Origin: Escherichia coli
GTDB taxonomy: Bacteria; Pseudomonadota; Gammaproteobacteria; Enterobacterales; Enterobacteriaceae
DNA length: 64,000 bases
Reading direction: 5' to 3' (one strand)
Assembly (NCBI RefSeq): GCF_013315695.1
Contig: NZ_CP054353.1
Within the stretch, counting starts at the first letter, position 1, and each line of letters begins with the position of its first letter. The translations under genes and the position numbers were made by a program. The notes under the pieces are model-generated. The model was given only the letters and a program-made list of their open reading frames with translations. It made no database searches and had not been told where the DNA came from. Of this stretch, positions 10,267 through 54,877 are shown piece after piece.

Positions 10267-12107
<1,841 letters not shown>

Positions 12108-12127
<20 letters not shown>

Positions 12128-12752
12128 CTTTACCTGACCAGATAATTTCGCCCGTCTGCACCAGCATCAGCTGCATTTGTAGGGTCGGAGCGTTAACGTT
12201 GCCAGAGGCGCTGGAGTACAGCACGTAATGAGCGCCAACATTGCGGGCAATGCCTATGGCTTTACTACGGGTGCCTAAACTGTCCTGCGGCGACAAACCT
12301 AATTGTTGCTTAGCCATCGACAGCTGCTGGGCGGAAACCAGGGTAAATTTACCGTTATTAGCCAGCGCATTTCGCAGCGTTTCGGTCGCTTCTGCGGCAT
12401 TCAGCGAACCGTTAGTACGGTTGTTAACGCTATCAACCAGAAGGACGCTACCCGCAGTCACGCCATCAGCCCCAAGCATCTTACTGACCATCGGCTGCAT
12501 TGCGCCATTCCAGTCATAATGGCGAATATGCGGCGCAGGCGGTGCAGTTTGATCTTCGTGCTCAATTGGGCCTGGCTGCTGCGGTATCGTCGGCACCGAT
12601 GGCACTGTGGGGACAGGCTGTTGTGGCTCGGCAGGTTGTTCCGGCGCTGGTTTCACTTCTTCTACCGGTGCAGGTTCACGTTGCCCCACACACCCGGCGA
12701 GAAACATCGCCAGCGCGGTAATCAAGGCGTAGCGACTCATTTTTGTCATCAA
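12108..12752 (-). CDS. lpoB: PBP1B activator lipoprotein LpoB (YcfM)
   Basis: ORF with lipobox LAGC and proline-rich linker; matches LpoB as recalled (213-214 aa). Confidence 0.9.
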
Positions 12753-18564: not shown

Positions 18565-19569
18565 TTAAAGATGAGGAACCGGTAGCACAACGCCCGGTTG
18601 CAGGTAATGCTCAATACGCAGTAAAAGATCGGTGATGAGAAGCTCGCGGTTAATACCTGTGACAGACATTAACTGTTCACGAATGTGGCAAACATCCCCC
18701 AGTATAGCCTGCAGGCGCGAGGGAGAAAGATGGTTTGCCAGTTCGACGACCAGGCCCGGCACATCAACATTGGTCACCTGCGCAGCGCCATGATGGCGTT
18801 TTAGCGCATCCATCAGCAACGTTGCCAACCAGTGTAAACGCGCCGGAGCTTGTTCATGATTAAGGGCCGCCAGCAGCGAATACCAGTCGCCCGATTGCAC
18901 GCTATATGCCAACGCCTGACACAATGTTTCACGAGCCTGCCAGTTATCTCCCTGAAACAACGCCAGTGCCGCGCCAGGCGAACCGGCGCTTAAACGCAAT
19001 GCGGCAAGTAATGCATCCTGTGACATTGTCACTTCGCGTGAAAGCCAGGTCACGGCGTACTGTTCCGGCGGCGGCGCAAGGTAATGTAACCGACAACGAC
19101 TACGTAATGTTGCCAGTAAACGTTCAGGCTCGCGGGTAGCAAGGAAAAACCAGGTTTCTGCTGGTGGCTCTTCAAGCGTTTTCAGCAATGCGTTAGCCGC
19201 GGCGTCAGTCAGTAAGGCAGCATCGGTTACCCAGACAACTTTCGCACCACCTAAGCGTGCGTGCTCATTTAACTTTTCGGTGACTTCACGTACCGCATCA
19301 ATGCCCAGCGCATTTTTCCCTTTCTCGGGAGCCAGGGTGTAATAATCGGGATGCGTGCCAGCCTGCATCAACTGACATCCACGACAGTGACCGCAACTTT
19401 TGTGGCCCTGCGGTTGTTGGCAGAGTAAATAACGGCTCAGGGCGTAGATTAAAGCATCCTCGCCCATACCCGGTAACGCCTGAATGAGTAGCGCATGGTG
19501 ACCTCTTCCGGCCTGATAGCTGGCTACCAGTTTTTCGAAATCAGGTCGTAACCATGGATACCATCTCAT
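18565..19569 (-). CDS. holB: DNA polymerase III delta-prime subunit
   Basis: ORF trimmed to ATG 19569 ([28 protein letters not shown]...), 334 aa; overlaps tmk by 4 nt. Confidence 0.94.
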
Positions 19570-20207
19570 GCGTCCAACTCCTTCACCCAATTGGTCACGG
19601 TAGTGCGGATTGCATCCATCACGGACTCCAGCGGCTGGGTGGCATCAATGGTATGAATGCTTTTATCTTGTGCTGCCAGTTCCAGATAGCGGGCGCGGGT
19701 GCGATTAAAGAAATCGAAAGACTCTTGCTCAATACGATCCAGCTCGCCGCGAGCACGCGCACGTTTTAAGCCAACTTCCGGGGTAACATCGAGATAGAGC
19801 GTTAAGTCGGGGCGAAAATCCCCGAGAACAGCATCACGCAATGTTGCCAGCATATGTTGGTCAATACCACGTCCGCCGCCCTGATACGCCTGAGTGGAGA
19901 GATCGTGGCGATCGCCAATCACCCAGGTGCCGTTAGCCAGCGCTGGTTTGATGACCGTTTCTACCAGTTGAACGCGCGCGGCATAAAACATCAGAACTTC
20001 GGCTTTATCGGTAATGACTTCATCGCCTACCGATTTGATATCCAGCACCAGGCTTCTTAACTTTTCGGCAAGTTGCGTACCGCCAGGTTCCCGAGTGAAA
20101 ACCATGTCGCGGATACCCAGTTGCTCGAGCGTCTCAACCACCACATTACGCGCGGTAGTTTTGCCTGCGCCTTCCAGCCCCTCAATGACGATATACTTAC
20201 TGCGCAT
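19566..20207 (-). CDS. tmk: Thymidylate kinase
   Basis: 213-aa [21 protein letters not shown]... (P-loop). Confidence 0.96.
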
Positions 20208-21219
20208 TTTTTTCCTTAAGCACTTTCAGATAATCCTGCACAGACTTGTTATGACTGGCAAGATTGGTATTAAACGTGTGACCACCTTTACCATCGGCCA
20301 CAAAATAGAGATACGGCGTTTTTGCCGGATGCGCAGCAGCCTTCAGCGAATCCGCCCCCGGCGTCGCTATCGCACCTGGCGGCAAACCGGTAATGGTATA
20401 GGTGTTATACGCTGTCGGCGTTTCCAGGTCTGCACGAGAAAGTTTGCCATTATAACGCTCTCCCATCCCGTAAATCACGGTCGGGTCGGTCTGCAGGCGC
20501 ATACCAATGCGTAACCGGTTGATAAATACCGAGGCCACCTGATCGCGTTCACTGGCAACGGCGGTTTCTTTTTCGATAATTGATGCCATCGTCACCAGCT
20601 GGTTTTTATCTTTATAGGGCAGACCGTCCGCACGCCCTTCCCAGGCGCTATCGACCGCTTTCACCATTTTCTTGTGCGCTCGCTTGAGTAACGCGACATC
20701 GGTGGTATTGGCGGTATACATCCAGGTGTCTGGCCAGAACCAACCTTCAATCCACTCCGGGTTTTCCAGTTCAAGTGCCTGCGCTACGGTGGCGTACTTA
20801 TCGTCGCTCAGCGTATGCTTGATATACGGGGCCTCACGCAATTGCTTGAGGTAATCGCTCAGACGCATCCCTTCTACCAGTCGCAGAGGGAACTGTGCTT
20901 CTTTACCGCTTTCCAGCAATTTCAGCATCTCGCGCACGGTCATCTGCGGTGTAAAGCGGTAAGTCCCGGCTTTAAAGTGAGAAAGATCCGGTTCGATACG
21001 CAGCAGCCATTGAAAAACCCGTGGGCGATTGATGATCTTATCGGCATAAAGCTGTTCACCTAGCGCCAGACGTCCGGTCCCTGGCTTCAGGGTAAATATC
21101 GTCTCTTCTTTGATAAGCAATTTGCTGTCGGCAAGATGGCGAACCTTCCAGACGCCCACACCAGCGGCGATACCCAGTACCACCAGTAATAACAAGATAA
21201 TCAATAACACTTTTTTCAT
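20197..21219 (-). CDS. mltG: Endolytic murein transglycosylase MltG (YceG)
   Basis: 340-aa ORF with N-terminal transmembrane helix; YceG family. Confidence 0.93.
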
Positions 21220-21221
21220 GA

Positions 21222-22031
21222 CTAATTCGGGCGCTCACAAAGTGGGGCTAAATATTCATATAACGTTGCTGACGAAAAGGAGACATCGCCACAGGCACGT
21301 ACGGGCATCACTGGCATTAACGCATTACAAATAACCATCTCATCTGCCTGCAACGCCTCTTCCAGAGAGGCTTGCACTTCGACAAGCTGATAAGAGGATT
21401 GTGCCAGCAAACGGATACAGAATTGTCGCATAATGCCGTTAACACCTGCCTGATCCAGTCGCGGCGTATAAACTACGTTGCCCTTCCGCCAGAACAAATT
21501 AGCCGCACAGCATTCCGTAACCCACCCTTCGCTGTCAAGGACCAGCGCCTCATCAGCGTTTGTCTGCTCAAGATGAGAGCGGATCAATACTTGCTCAAGC
21601 CGATTAAGATGTTTAATACCTGCAAGATGAGGATTGCGCCCCAGCCGCACCGGGCTTAGCGCCAACGTCATCCCCTCGTTACGCAAACGGTCGTAATGTG
21701 CGGGATAAACCGTAACGGAGAGAATCCGCGTTGCCGGTCCGCTGTTCAATGTGCTGTATCCTCGCCCGCCACTACCGCGACTGATCACCACTTTCAGCAC
21801 ACCATTTTGCTGTTCTGCTGTCAGCGTTTTCATCTCTAGTTCAAGCTGAGGCCAGAAGTCACAGGAAATCATCAACCGCTGACAAGCATCCTGTAGTCGC
21901 TGGATATGCGCCGATAACAAACTGACTTTACCGTCGATAACTCTGGCGGTGGTAAAACAACCATCACCAAACTGCGTTGCCCGATCGCTTACTGCCAGCG
22001 ATTCCTGCTTATGACCGTTAATTAAGAACAT
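21222..22031 (-). CDS. pabC: Aminodeoxychorismate lyase PabC
   Basis: 269-aa [31 protein letters not shown]...; fold-type IV PLP enzyme. Confidence 0.93.
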
Positions 22032-34196: not shown

Positions 34197-34222
34197 TTTC
34201 AGGGGTAGCATCTTTGCTGTAA

Positions 34223-34251
34223 TGACATTAGCGTTACATGTGCTGTATAAT
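34223..34251 (+). promoter_or_regulatory. Putative sigma-70 promoter of the toxin-antitoxin operon with overlapping inverted repeats
   Basis: TGACAT (34223..34228), 17-bp spacer, TATAAT (34246..34251); palindromes TAATGaCATTA, ACATGT and ATAATTAT in and around it. Confidence 0.45.
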
Positions 34252-34282
34252 TATCATCCACGCAAAGCCGAAGGATATATTT

Positions 34283-35067
<785 letters not shown>

Positions 35068-35083
35068 TTCGTTATGTCTCATG

Positions 35084-37835: not shown

Positions 37836-38777
37836 TCAGAACAGATTATCAATGTTCATGCTGTAGGTTTTGCTCACCTTGTCGCTTATCGATTTCATCT
37901 GCTGAATCATGCTGGTGAGTTTGCGGGCATAGTGAGGATCGGTGGCATAGCCCGCGTCCTGTAGGGCCTGCGCCCCCTGCTCCGCACTCGCGGCGGTCGT
38001 CACGGCGGCGTAGCGCGGGTTACGCGTTAACAGCCCAACGTAATCCGACAATGCTTCCAGATACGAGCTGTAGACCCGAAACTTCGCTTTTACTTTCTTC
38101 GCTTCGCCATTTTCATATTCAGTCGTGGTGATTTCAGTAACTGGCCCTTTCCAGTTGCCAGAGGCTTTGACGCCAAACAGGTTATAGCTCGGCTCGCCGT
38201 TTTCACGGCGGATTTGCCGTTGTCCCCAGCCAGATTCCAGCGCCGCCTGAGCGAGGATCAAATGATGTGGCACACCGCTTTGCTGGCTTGCCAGTTGGGC
38301 GGGCAACGAGAGTTGCGCGAGGAATGCTTTACTGTCACCCGGCAGCGAATCATCGTAGTTACGTGGTACGGCCTTTTGCACCAGCTGCGAAAGCGTCTGA
38401 TTTTGATAACGCACCACGGTTTCGAGCGGGAATTTCATCGGTGCTGCTGGCGTGGACTCCTCTGGCAATGGTTGTTCTGGCGTCATCTGTTTAACCATCA
38501 TCTCTGCCAGCCCCAGACCTTTGCCCGCCGTCATCTGTTGGGCAATCTGCTGGTCATACATACTGGTATACAGGTGAGTGTGCTCGCTGCTGAACAGGCC
38601 ATCTTTTGGTAAAGCGTCGCGCATGCTTTTCAACATCATCTGCACGAACATCCCTTCCACCTGGTGGGCCACCGGACGGATATTTGCCGCCGGATCTTCG
38701 CCCGCTTTCGCCTTAAGTTCGTTGAGCGATTGTGCATCCCAGGCCGCACTTGCCAGTAGTTTGCTGTCGCTGATCAT
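37836..38777 (-). CDS. flgJ: Flagellar rod-assembly protein / peptidoglycan hydrolase FlgJ
   Basis: ORF trimmed to ATG 38777 ([22 protein letters not shown]...), 313 aa. Confidence 0.93.
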   Translation of the reverse strand: MISDSKLLASAAWDAQSLNELKAKAGEDPAANIRPVAHQVEGMFVQMMLKSMRDALPKDGLFSSEHTHLYTSMYDQQIAQQMTAGKGLGLAEMMVKQMTPEQPLPEESTPAAPMKFPLETVVRYQNQTLSQLVQKAVPRNYDDSLPGDSKAFLAQLSLPAQLASQQSGVPHHLILAQAALESGWGQRQIRRENGEPSYNLFGVKASGNWKGPVTEITTTEYENGEAKKVKAKFRVYSSYLEALSDYVGLLTRNPRYAAVTTAASAEQGAQALQDAGYATDPHYARKLTSMIQQMKSISDKVSKTYSMNIDNLF

Positions 38778-39874
38778 CAGATGATTTCCAGTTTTGCCCG
38801 CAGACATCCCGCACTTTGCATTGATTGCAGTATGGACATCAGATCCATCGGCGTAGCGCCCAGCGCATTGAGCGCACGCACCACGTTATTGAGGCTGGCG
38901 CTGGAACGTACGCTTTGCAGCGAACCGCCGCTCTGGCGTAAATCGATCTGCGTTTGTGGCGTTACCACGGTCTGCCCGCCACCAAACGGTGTATCTGGCT
39001 GGCTGACATTGGCCTGACGATTAACTGTTACTGAGAGATTCCCCTGCGCTACCGCGCAGCTGTCGAGGGTCACTTCGCGATTCATCACCACCGAACCAGT
39101 GCGCGAGTTAATCACTACTTTAGCGTCCTGCGGGGTGACATTAACCTGCATATTCTGGATATCGGCAAGGAAACGGACCTGGGAACTGTTGCCACTCGGT
39201 ACGCGCACCTGAATAGTCCGCGCATCTAACGCGGTGGCGCTGCCATATCCACGCACACGGTTGATGGTGTCAGCGATTTGCTGCGCCATACTGAAATCTT
39301 CGTCGTTAAGTTGCAAATTAAGGGTATTCCCGACGCCAAACTGGCTGGGCAATTCACGTTCAATAACCGCTCCATTGGTGATCCGTCCACCGTTCAGTTG
39401 GTTCACCTGAACACTGCTACCGCCAGCGGAGGCCCCTGCGCCGCCAACCAGAATATTGCCCTGCGCCAGCGCATACACCTGACTGTCAACGCCCTTAAGC
39501 GGTGTCATCAATAACGTACCGCCACGCAGACTTTTGGCATTTCCCATGGAAGAAACCACCACGTCAATGGTTTGCCCCTGACGTCCAAACGGTGGAAGTG
39601 ACGCTGTCACCATAACCGCAGCGACGTTTTTTAGCTGCATATTAGTGCCCGTCGGAACGGTAATTCCCAGCTGTGAGAGCATGTTATTAAGCGTTTGTGT
39701 GGTAAACGGCGTCTGAGTTGTCTGGTCACCTGTACCATCAAGCCCCACCACCAGACCATAGCCAATCAGTGAGTTTTGCCTTACCCCCTGAACACTGGTG
39801 AGATCGCGAATACGCTCAGCCTGAACCGCCGTCGTAACCAGTAGAAGAATTAATGCAGAGAGAAATTTAATCAC
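38777..39874 (-). CDS. flgI: Flagellar P-ring protein FlgI
   Basis: Second GTG at 39874 gives [19 protein letters not shown]... (365 aa, signal peptide); stop overlaps flgJ start by 1 nt. Confidence 0.95.
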
Positions 39875-54622: not shown

Positions 54623-54877
54623 ATGCGAATTGAAGTCACCATAGCGAAAACTTCTCCATTGCCAGCTGGGGCTATTGACGCCCTGGCAGGCGAACTTTCC
54701 CGCCGTATTCAGTATGCGTTTCCTGATAATGAAGGCCACGTATCGGTACGTTATGCCGCAGCGAATAATTTATCGGTTATTGGCGCGACAAAAGAAGATA
54801 AACAGCGCATTAGCAAATTCTCCAGGAAACGTGGGAAAGCGCCGATGACTGGTTTGTCAGCGAATAATATGCAGTGA
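54623..54877 (+). CDS. dinI: DNA-damage-inducible protein DinI, apparently with frameshifted C-terminus
   Basis: ATG 54623 gives MRIEVTIAKTSPLPAGAIDALAGELSRRIQYAFPDNEGHVSVRYAAANNLSVIGATKEDKQRIS then KFSRKRGKAPMTGLSANNMQ; the +1 frame reads ...QETWESADDWFVSE stop, matching the DinI C-terminus as I recall it. Confidence 0.8.
   Translation: MRIEVTIAKTSPLPAGAIDALAGELSRRIQYAFPDNEGHVSVRYAAANNLSVIGATKEDKQRISKFSRKRGKAPMTGLSANNMQ

Follow-up and report, generated by a model that had tools for sequence, protein, structure and literature searches.

We note that the stretch of DNA analysed here (64,000 nucleotides of Escherichia coli contig NZ_CP054353.1, hereafter the window) is a chromosomal segment that runs from ycfT through mdoH. 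A 24-kb piece of it is matched in 5425 of 5426 complete E. coli genomes, the match to strain MSB1_4I being 100% identical. Since the MSB1_4I record NZ_LR898874.1 differs from the window at just 5 positions over 64 kb, its NCBI annotation is directly transferable, and with the exception of the dinI pseudogene all of the coding sequences transferred in this way translate cleanly. Four stop/start junctions in this segment had been described in an earlier note as overlapping: tmk/holB, flgI/flgJ, lpoB/thiK and an antitoxin/toxin pair. All four overlaps are present in the sequence at the coordinates given for them, and the coordinates, NCBI coding sequences and Pfam matches agree. The eight coding sequences that meet at these junctions are free of internal stops and correspond to the CDS features of NZ_LR898874.1, and each of the eight proteins has strong Pfam matches to named families. 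The list was correct in its four entries but incomplete, as an 11-nt overlap between mltG (yceG) and tmk had been omitted.

With this fifth case included, the window has 5 overlaps among its 50 co-directional neighbour pairs, and gaps of 1-24 nt separate 18 more. Approximately 15% of the ORF pairs in E. coli operons have been reported to overlap (PMC5318159), so the set is typical for E. coli and represents no enrichment. The class, too, is already well described. The overlaps cannot be put down to chance in ORF calling, since the genes that they join are conserved and the overlaps recur in other species; that these are real genes with correctly placed ends is supported by the Pfam matches of all eight proteins, by the NCBI annotation and by the starts and stops seen across species. 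Three of the junctions belong to the short-overlap class of 4-nt NTGA and 1-nt TRATG arrangements, namely the ATGA at 19566-19569, the ATGA at 34573-34576 and the TGATG at 38775-38779, whereas lpoB/thiK (20 nt) and mltG/tmk (11 nt) are longer overlaps outside it, and these two also fall outside the enriched overlap classes of 4, 1 and 8 nt (PMC12548453).

The tmk gene, encoding dTMP kinase (19566..20207, minus strand; NCBI CDS in a near-identical genome; Pfam Thymidylate_kin, E=1.7e-60), is followed by holB, encoding DNA polymerase III's delta' subunit (18565..19569, minus strand; Pfam DNA_pol3_delta2, HolB_lid and DNApol3-delta_C). The two share four nucleotides (19566..19569, minus strand) in an ATGA junction: the minus strand from 19570 to 19566 reads C-ATG-A, with the holB ATG at 19569-19567 followed by AGA as the second codon, and the tmk TGA stop at 19568-19566. 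The holB Shine-Dalgarno (SD) motif, AAGGAG (19578..19583, minus strand), is contained in tmk, 8 nt ahead of the holB ATG, and its predicted anti-SD duplex of -9.5 kcal/mol ranks fifth among the 65 genes of the window. At the other end of tmk, its start overlaps the mltG (yceG) stop by 11 nt (20197..20207, minus strand; from the NCBI coding sequences and their translation), with an upstream AAGGA SD whose predicted anti-SD duplex is -6.1 kcal/mol.

The gene for the flagellar P-ring protein, flgI (38777..39874, minus strand; NCBI CDS; Pfam FlgI, E=3e-139), and that for the rod cap/muramidase, flgJ (37836..38777, minus strand; NCBI CDS; Pfam Rod-binding and Glucosaminidase), meet in a TGATG (38775..38779, minus strand) in which the flgI stop TGA occupies 38779-38777 and the flgJ ATG 38777-38775, a 1-nt overlap at 38777. 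The flgJ SD is weak (-3.3 kcal/mol, rank 51 of 65 genes) and little local structure is predicted around it; by these model energies, a weak SD in an unstructured context fits a dependence of flgJ on ribosomes coming from flgI.

On the plus strand, a TacA-like (DUF1778) antitoxin gene (34283..34576; NCBI CDS; Pfam TacA1 PF08681, E=1.2e-26) precedes a gene for a GNAT acetyltransferase toxin of the TacT family (34573..35067; GNAT Pfam matches and relatives among PDB sequences). Their ATGA overlap spans 4 nt (34573..34576, plus strand), with the toxin ATG at 34573-34575 and the antitoxin TGA at 34574-34576. The toxin start is preceded, 8 nt upstream, by GGGAG (34560-34564; predicted duplex -6.5 kcal/mol) and then by a run of eight A residues (34566-34573). 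A predicted sigma-70 promoter for the operon (34222..34251, plus strand; ATGACA, 18 nt, TATAAT; 11 of 12 matches) was the best promoter-like site in the scanned region as judged by consensus match only, and a longer antitoxin ORF starting from 34238 begins inside it. When the toxin was compared with PDB sequences by phmmer, the closest chain was 7ak7_A (7.7e-76), then 5fvj_A (3.8e-44) and KacT 5zgn_C (4e-20), with other TacT/KacT/AtaT-type chains following. The labels antitoxin and toxin, given earlier to this pair, are thus borne out by the position of a DUF1778/TacA1 gene directly upstream of a GNAT gene and by the homology of the latter to TacT/KacT/AtaT chains; no relatives of the toxin were found in viral contigs.

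In its layout the cassette resembles the TacAT, KacAT and AtaRT type II systems: the antitoxin gene comes first, the toxin gene is tightly joined to it, and there is a (predicted) promoter of its own. Toxin activity and target are putative here, as is neutralisation by the antitoxin of a toxin that, in a TacAT-type system, acetylates aminoacyl-tRNA. The cassette is chromosomal, with rne and flgL on either side, and only 685 of 5426 complete E. coli genomes carry it. The 4-nt overlap is not a fixture of the family. Five homologous pairs on plasmids, taken with their annotated junctions, have overlaps of 13, 13 and 10 nt and, in two cases, 3-nt gaps, and across these homologues the junction is always tight while its length is not constant. 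Two further ideas about this junction were set aside. A structure at the toxin start was rejected, since shuffled sequence folds just as well (z = -0.09), and a variable A-run was likewise rejected, as the antitoxin and toxin gene lengths and the 4-nt overlap are identical in the one other E. coli strain that was checked.

The longest overlap is that between lpoB, encoding an activator of PBP1b (12108..12749, minus strand; NCBI CDS; Pfam LpoB, E=3.5e-37), and thiK, encoding thiamine kinase (11303..12127, minus strand; NCBI CDS; Pfam APH). The thiK GTG start (12127-12125) lies 20 nt inside the 3' end of lpoB, whose TAA stop is at 12110-12108 (overlap 12108..12127, minus strand), and the thiK SD, AGGU, is weak to moderate, with a predicted duplex of -5.0 kcal/mol. 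Both genes have been assigned to a longer operon, published as extending from hinT through ycfP (PMC11731830).

A scan with Tmk, taking one genome per species, yielded 80 Enterobacteriaceae loci with 10-kb flanks, in which the junctions were located by tblastn and extension to start and stop codons. The tmk/holB junction is ATGA in 77 of 78 species, the lone exception being an Atlantibacter with TAATG, and mltG/tmk has its 11-nt overlap in 76 of 77. The 20-nt lpoB/thiK overlap, together with the GTG start, was found in 48 of 50 species, and across those 48 the lpoB stop codon itself varies (TAA in 44, TGA in 3, TAG in 1) with the 20-nt distance constant. In Salmonella enterica, Citrobacter farmeri and Citrobacter cronae, the three other species checked, from two other genera, flgI/flgJ likewise reads TGATG. 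The pabC/mltG junction, by comparison, drifts: 36 species have a spacing of +2, 24 one of -4 and 7 one of +1. As judged from these sequence comparisons, the conservation confirms the start codons, that of thiK in particular. It would be weak evidence for coupling, because a changed overlap means two changed protein termini; conserved overlaps may simply reflect constraint on the termini of both proteins.

The same comparisons bear on whether any of the overlaps might be an annotation artefact, in which a start codon has been misassigned, the thiK GTG being the likeliest case, so that genes appear to overlap that do not truly do so. GTG starts and 20-nt overlaps are unusual, and ORF-finding alone cannot fix starts; the raw ORF list holds longer alternatives for holB, flgJ and the antitoxin. 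Against this, the thiK GTG stays at a constant position in 48 of 50 species, and its T doubles as the third position of a glycine codon of LpoB that is GGT in all of those 48, while the next visible in-frame thiK start, a TTG, comes at codon 14. The ATGs of holB and flgJ do not vary between species and open conserved N-termini, the NCBI and K-12 RefSeq annotations agree, and Napolitano et al. accepted that tmk and holB truly overlap. The idea that the overlaps stem from mis-annotated starts was rejected on this conservation, and we regard such an artefact as highly improbable.

What the overlaps do is a separate matter. The 4-nt and 1-nt overlaps are by far the commonest spacings in all prokaryotes and the most coupling-competent; spacings from -4 to about +3 nt allow efficient coupling, which decays fast with longer overlap and in synthetic constructs is gone at 25 nt (Brown and Wade 2025, PMC12548453). 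When native E. coli pairs with 4-nt overlaps were examined in reporter assays, four of five were strictly coupled and bioBF was not, and the SD motifs of the tested coupled pairs contributed to reinitiation and did not replace it (Huber et al. 2019, PMC6728339). The junctions described here are built like those experimentally tested pairs (PMC6728339), with ATGA at tmk/holB and antitoxin/toxin, TGATG at flgI/flgJ and, likewise, an SD-like motif inside the upstream gene. Such a motif was found at proper spacing within the upstream ORF for holB, the toxin, tmk and thiK, while that of flgJ is weak. No terminator-like sites were found by consensus-match scan at the tmk/holB, flgI/flgJ or antitoxin/toxin junctions, the scan picking out instead a terminator-like hairpin just past the lpoB stop. 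The earlier statement that the overlaps are consistent with coupled translation is reasonable for the 4-nt and 1-nt junctions, whose spacings are the commonest and coupling-competent ones in the literature, and doubtful for lpoB/thiK, where the overlap is long and a Rho region lies inside thiK.

We consider it probable that these are short overlapping junctions at which the 4-nt and 1-nt overlaps couple translation, with weak coupling and an expression step-down at lpoB/thiK. In such an arrangement the downstream start lies on or just before the upstream stop, and the ribosome-binding motif is embedded in the upstream coding sequence. At tmk/holB, antitoxin/toxin and flgI/flgJ, a ribosome ending the upstream gene would most likely reinitiate at the adjacent start, or open that start for a new ribosome, and synthesis of the downstream protein would be set at a constant and usually lower fraction of that of the upstream protein. 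At lpoB/thiK a ribosome would have to move backward in order to reinitiate, probably with low efficiency; this junction looks more like an expression step-down, with a conserved hairpin just past the lpoB stop and Rho-dependent termination further into thiK. We infer the dependence of downstream on upstream translation: the literature searched yielded no direct coupling measurement for any of the four pairs, and the table of Burkhardt 2017 includes tmk and ycfH, with holB, flgI/J, lpoB and thiK absent. A further point against coupling is that, to our knowledge, three of the four pairs are not obvious partners in a 1:1 complex.

An overlap by itself does not establish coupling, because bioBF is uncoupled despite its ATGA and because genome-wide translation-efficiency ratios are as variable for overlapping as for non-overlapping pairs (PMC5318159). 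Alternatively, then, the overlaps might be by-products of genome compaction and of the easy origin of NTGA, with the downstream genes starting independently at their own SD sites and the overlap having no regulatory role. The abundance of 4-nt overlaps has indeed been ascribed in a review to ease of evolution (PMC12548453), the independent initiation of bioBF (PMC6728339) and the variability of the efficiency ratios point the same way, as does the flipping of pabC/mltG between +2, -4 and +1 among closely related species. The strict coupling of four of the five native 4-nt pairs, with SDs that aid reinitiation (PMC6728339), argues against it, as does the flgI/flgJ junction, where the SD is weak and yet TGATG is kept across genera.

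At tmk/holB the best computational indication of coupling is the SD, which is both strong and conserved: the fifth codon before the tmk stop encodes six different amino acids and yet has G as its third base in 76 of 77 species, and the fourth codon before the stop is GAG 73 times and GAA 4 times, so the GGAG upstream of holB is held by synonymous codon choice in tmk. A strong conserved SD of this kind could equally serve independent initiation. With respect to structure, the holB start region has a predicted opening cost of 15.0 kcal/mol (rank 8 of 65 genes) and in the window strain folds better than shuffled sequence (z = -2.15) with both the SD and the AUG paired. A conserved hairpin masking the holB ribosome-binding site was nevertheless rejected, as 48 species gave no covariation, an essentially empty consensus fold and 59% pairing in the SD-covering helix. 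The conserved local masking of the downstream start that belongs to the RNA unfolding model was, then, found at neither the holB nor the toxin start.

Genome engineering has already probed this junction. If the second holB codon is changed from AGA to CGU, Cys replaces the tmk stop and Tmk is lengthened by 14 residues; the change could not be introduced, and the authors deemed the Tmk extension deleterious (Napolitano et al. 2016, bioRxiv 10.1101/069385). The same 14-codon extension can be read directly in the window sequence. Recoded E. coli with a stop codon inserted before the holB ATG was viable (Napolitano et al. 2016, bioRxiv 10.1101/069385), which means that the exact 4-nt geometry is dispensable; the overlap is real, its exact geometry is not needed. 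That an altered junction is viable speaks for the by-product explanation, but the viable recoded junction retains near-zero spacing, which is also coupling-competent. In Pseudomonas putida the tmk/holB overlap is likewise present and has been named a predicted translational-coupling architecture, and an engineered TGATG junction was used there successfully (Wirth et al. 2023, PMC10653934). The pair in the window has the identical genes and overlap as this published gamma-proteobacterial arrangement (Napolitano 2016; Wirth 2023), with no material difference. Taking all of this together, we consider it unlikely that the overlaps are by-products; coupling is a reasonable reading, in view of sequence and spacing, for the three short junctions, and is doubtful for lpoB/thiK.

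At lpoB/thiK the published transcript data have to be weighed as well. Rho requires untranslated RNA. In K-12, a Rho termination region has been reported at 1163767, inside thiK (1163260-1164084), across which coverage drops from 182 to 51 when bicyclomycin is absent and from 96 to 85 in its presence (Rho score 3.16, p = 1e-7), the region being mapped coarsely, in 800-nt windows (Adams et al. 2021). Given Rho's need for untranslated RNA, a termination region inside thiK suggests that thiK is frequently not translated. The evidence thus leans against tight coupling here, and of the junctions this is the one where coupling is least likely, because the overlap is long and the Rho termination region lies inside the downstream gene.

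The same junction carries a conserved RNA hairpin with a T-rich tail (12067..12098, minus strand). The stem-loop (12098-12077), consisting of seven Watson-Crick pairs, a closing G-U and a 6-nt loop, begins 9 nt past the lpoB stop, lies inside thiK codons 10-17 and is followed by TTTTTCC; it was the top terminator-like match in the promoter/terminator scan, with a free energy of about -14 to -16 kcal/mol. Among 51 aligned sequences 92.4% of the stem cells are paired, compared with 17-54% when the partners are slid by 1-3 columns. The stem pair at alignment columns 66 and 81 is UA in 23 sequences, CG in 20 and UG in 7, with one other, unpaired, and both columns are synonymous third positions, one in an Arg and the other in a Ser codon. 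The observed covariation was reached by none of 500 shuffles, a control that ignores relatedness. When mapped on a neighbour-joining tree for the tmk-holB region, the column 66/81 pair has undergone at least 10 changes of state, with the non-pairing C-A intermediate never seen, and the tree count is the more reliable support for covariation because the shuffle control ignores relatedness. A search of Rfam with the hairpin region gave no match.

There are several possible roles for such a hairpin. The window and 20 of 50 species combine a perfect stem with a terminator-grade T-tract, taken as at least five T in the following 8 nt. The hairpin might be a weak intrinsic attenuator, or it might have a role in thiK translation. 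The reading that we favour, as an unconfirmed lead, is that of a protective stem-loop which may halt exonucleases after Rho-dependent termination downstream. Transcripts terminated by Rho have been shown to end just after stable stem-loops that lack U-tracts, with rut sites downstream (Dar and Sorek 2018, PMC6061677). In keeping with that pattern, the stem-loop here is stable and lies upstream of the Rho region, with position 1163767 about 450 nt downstream of the hairpin, and a mildly C-rich stretch follows approximately 100-250 nt downstream. It differs from the protective 3' stem-loops of Rho-dependent transcripts (PMC6061677), and from intra-operon intrinsic attenuators, in lying within the coding sequence of the next gene, which is a consequence of the 20-nt overlap, and in having no mapped 3' end found at it (Adams 2021) and a T-tract that is only sometimes terminator-grade. 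The tables of Adams 2021, which list neighbouring loci, contain no dominant Term-seq 3' end near K-12 1163289-1163339, the operon being weakly expressed and the sensitivity low; further published 3'-end data also gave no RNA 3' end at this hairpin.

This raises the possibility that the lpoB/thiK junction is mainly a transcript boundary, or expression step-down, and not a coupling device, with the hairpin either protecting the 3' end of a hinT-ycfL-lpoB mRNA after Rho termination in a poorly translated thiK, or acting as a weak intrinsic attenuator. The covariation of the hairpin, the bicyclomycin-sensitive Rho termination region inside thiK, and the match of a stem-loop with a mildly C-rich stretch downstream to the published pattern (Dar and Sorek 2018, PMC6061677) all favour it; within it, as a terminator-grade T-tract occurs in just 20 of 50 species, a protective stem-loop is a better fit than a terminator. 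On the other hand, no dominant Term-seq 3' end falls near K-12 1163289-1163318 (Adams 2021, in which the region is covered, the operon being weakly expressed), the 800-nt windows make the Rho region coarse, and a hairpin in coding sequence could have other roles. We therefore hold this boundary tentatively, as a serious candidate that falls somewhat short of probable.

We speculate further, and with more doubt, that the hairpin is a functional boundary element exploiting the 20-nt overlap. If ribosomes seldom moved back to reinitiate at the thiK GTG, most thiK RNA would go untranslated; termination by Rho inside thiK, followed by exonuclease trimming of the transcript as far as the hairpin, would then give a stable hinT-ycfL-lpoB message and a fixed low output of ThiK and NagZ, so that overlap, hairpin and Rho would together set the expression ratio of the operon. 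If this were confirmed, a covarying hairpin upstream of a Rho region would represent an example of a long overlap, RNA structure and Rho polarity setting intra-operon ratios, which specialists would find moderately interesting. Among the elements described here, the hairpin alone might repay experiment.

Descriptions of short stop/start overlaps, and of how they relate to translational coupling, go back to the 1980s, such overlaps have been counted genome-wide, and the main finding, the four overlaps, is correct, ordinary and already known. The tmk/holB overlap in particular has been explicitly discussed in two genome-engineering studies (Napolitano et al. 2016, bioRxiv 10.1101/069385; Wirth et al. 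2023, PMC10653934). What is added here is the fifth overlap, mltG/tmk, and, as a new side observation, the conserved hairpin after the lpoB stop. For recoding and gene deletion the practical point is that edits at such junctions alter two genes at once, as was the case with the holB AGA codon. As a minor observation on the tmk sequence itself, the window strain has Leu (TTG) three codons before the tmk stop, a position occupied by Gln in the other species compared.

We note that the junction between mltG (yceG) and tmk, where the two genes overlap by 11 nt (20197-20207, minus strand) and an AAGGA motif lies upstream of the tmk ATG, is kept in 76 of the 77 Enterobacteriaceae species. This overlap is absent from the list of stop/start junctions given in the earlier note. 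The spacing at the pabC/mltG junction (21219-21222) varies across species, being +2 in 36, -4 (ATGA) in 24 and +1 in seven, and it shifts even between close relatives; such switching represents an example of the ease with which a 4-nt overlap can be both gained and lost.

At the ATGA junction of tmk and holB the first base of holB codon 2 (19564-19566) is fixed as A because of the tmk TGA stop. Escherichia and a small number of other species use the rare AGA at this position; most of the remaining species have AAA there. At the third tmk codon before the stop (19573-19575), near the C-terminus of Tmk, the window strain carries TTG (Leu), as compared to CAG or CAA (Gln) in 76 of 77 other species.

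Downstream of lpoB, 9 nt beyond its stop and inside thiK, where it occupies codons 10-17, lies a conserved GC-rich hairpin with a T-rich tail (12067-12098, minus strand). Across 51 Enterobacteriaceae sequences the hairpin displays compensatory synonymous changes, and one stem pair is UA in 23, CG in 20, UG in seven and another combination in one. An Rfam search with the hairpin returned no match, and no 3' end is recorded for it in the Term-seq tables of Adams 2021; a published Rho termination region is located in thiK, approximately 450 nt further downstream.

The tacAT-like toxin-antitoxin pair forms an accessory cassette of approximately 880 bp (about 34200-35082), which, relative to K-12, stands in place of approximately 65 bp in the spacer between rne and flgL. 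Among 5426 complete E. coli genomes, 685 match the full query, which spans the cassette, at a coverage of at least 80%; one of the copies resides on a 730-kb record labelled as a plasmid. Directly 5' of the toxin ATG is a run of eight A (34566-34573, plus strand) that, when read in the antitoxin frame, constitutes a canonical slippery heptamer (A AAA AAA); a -1 slip here would lead into the toxin frame and yield a fusion protein. The heptamer is probably coincidental, since the pair has identical gene lengths and overlap in the one other strain compared, and homologues do not carry the run.

Elsewhere in the window, dinI (54623-54867, plus strand) has no clean translation, and the annotation of the near-identical reference genome (NZ_LR898874.1) describes it as a frameshifted pseudogene.
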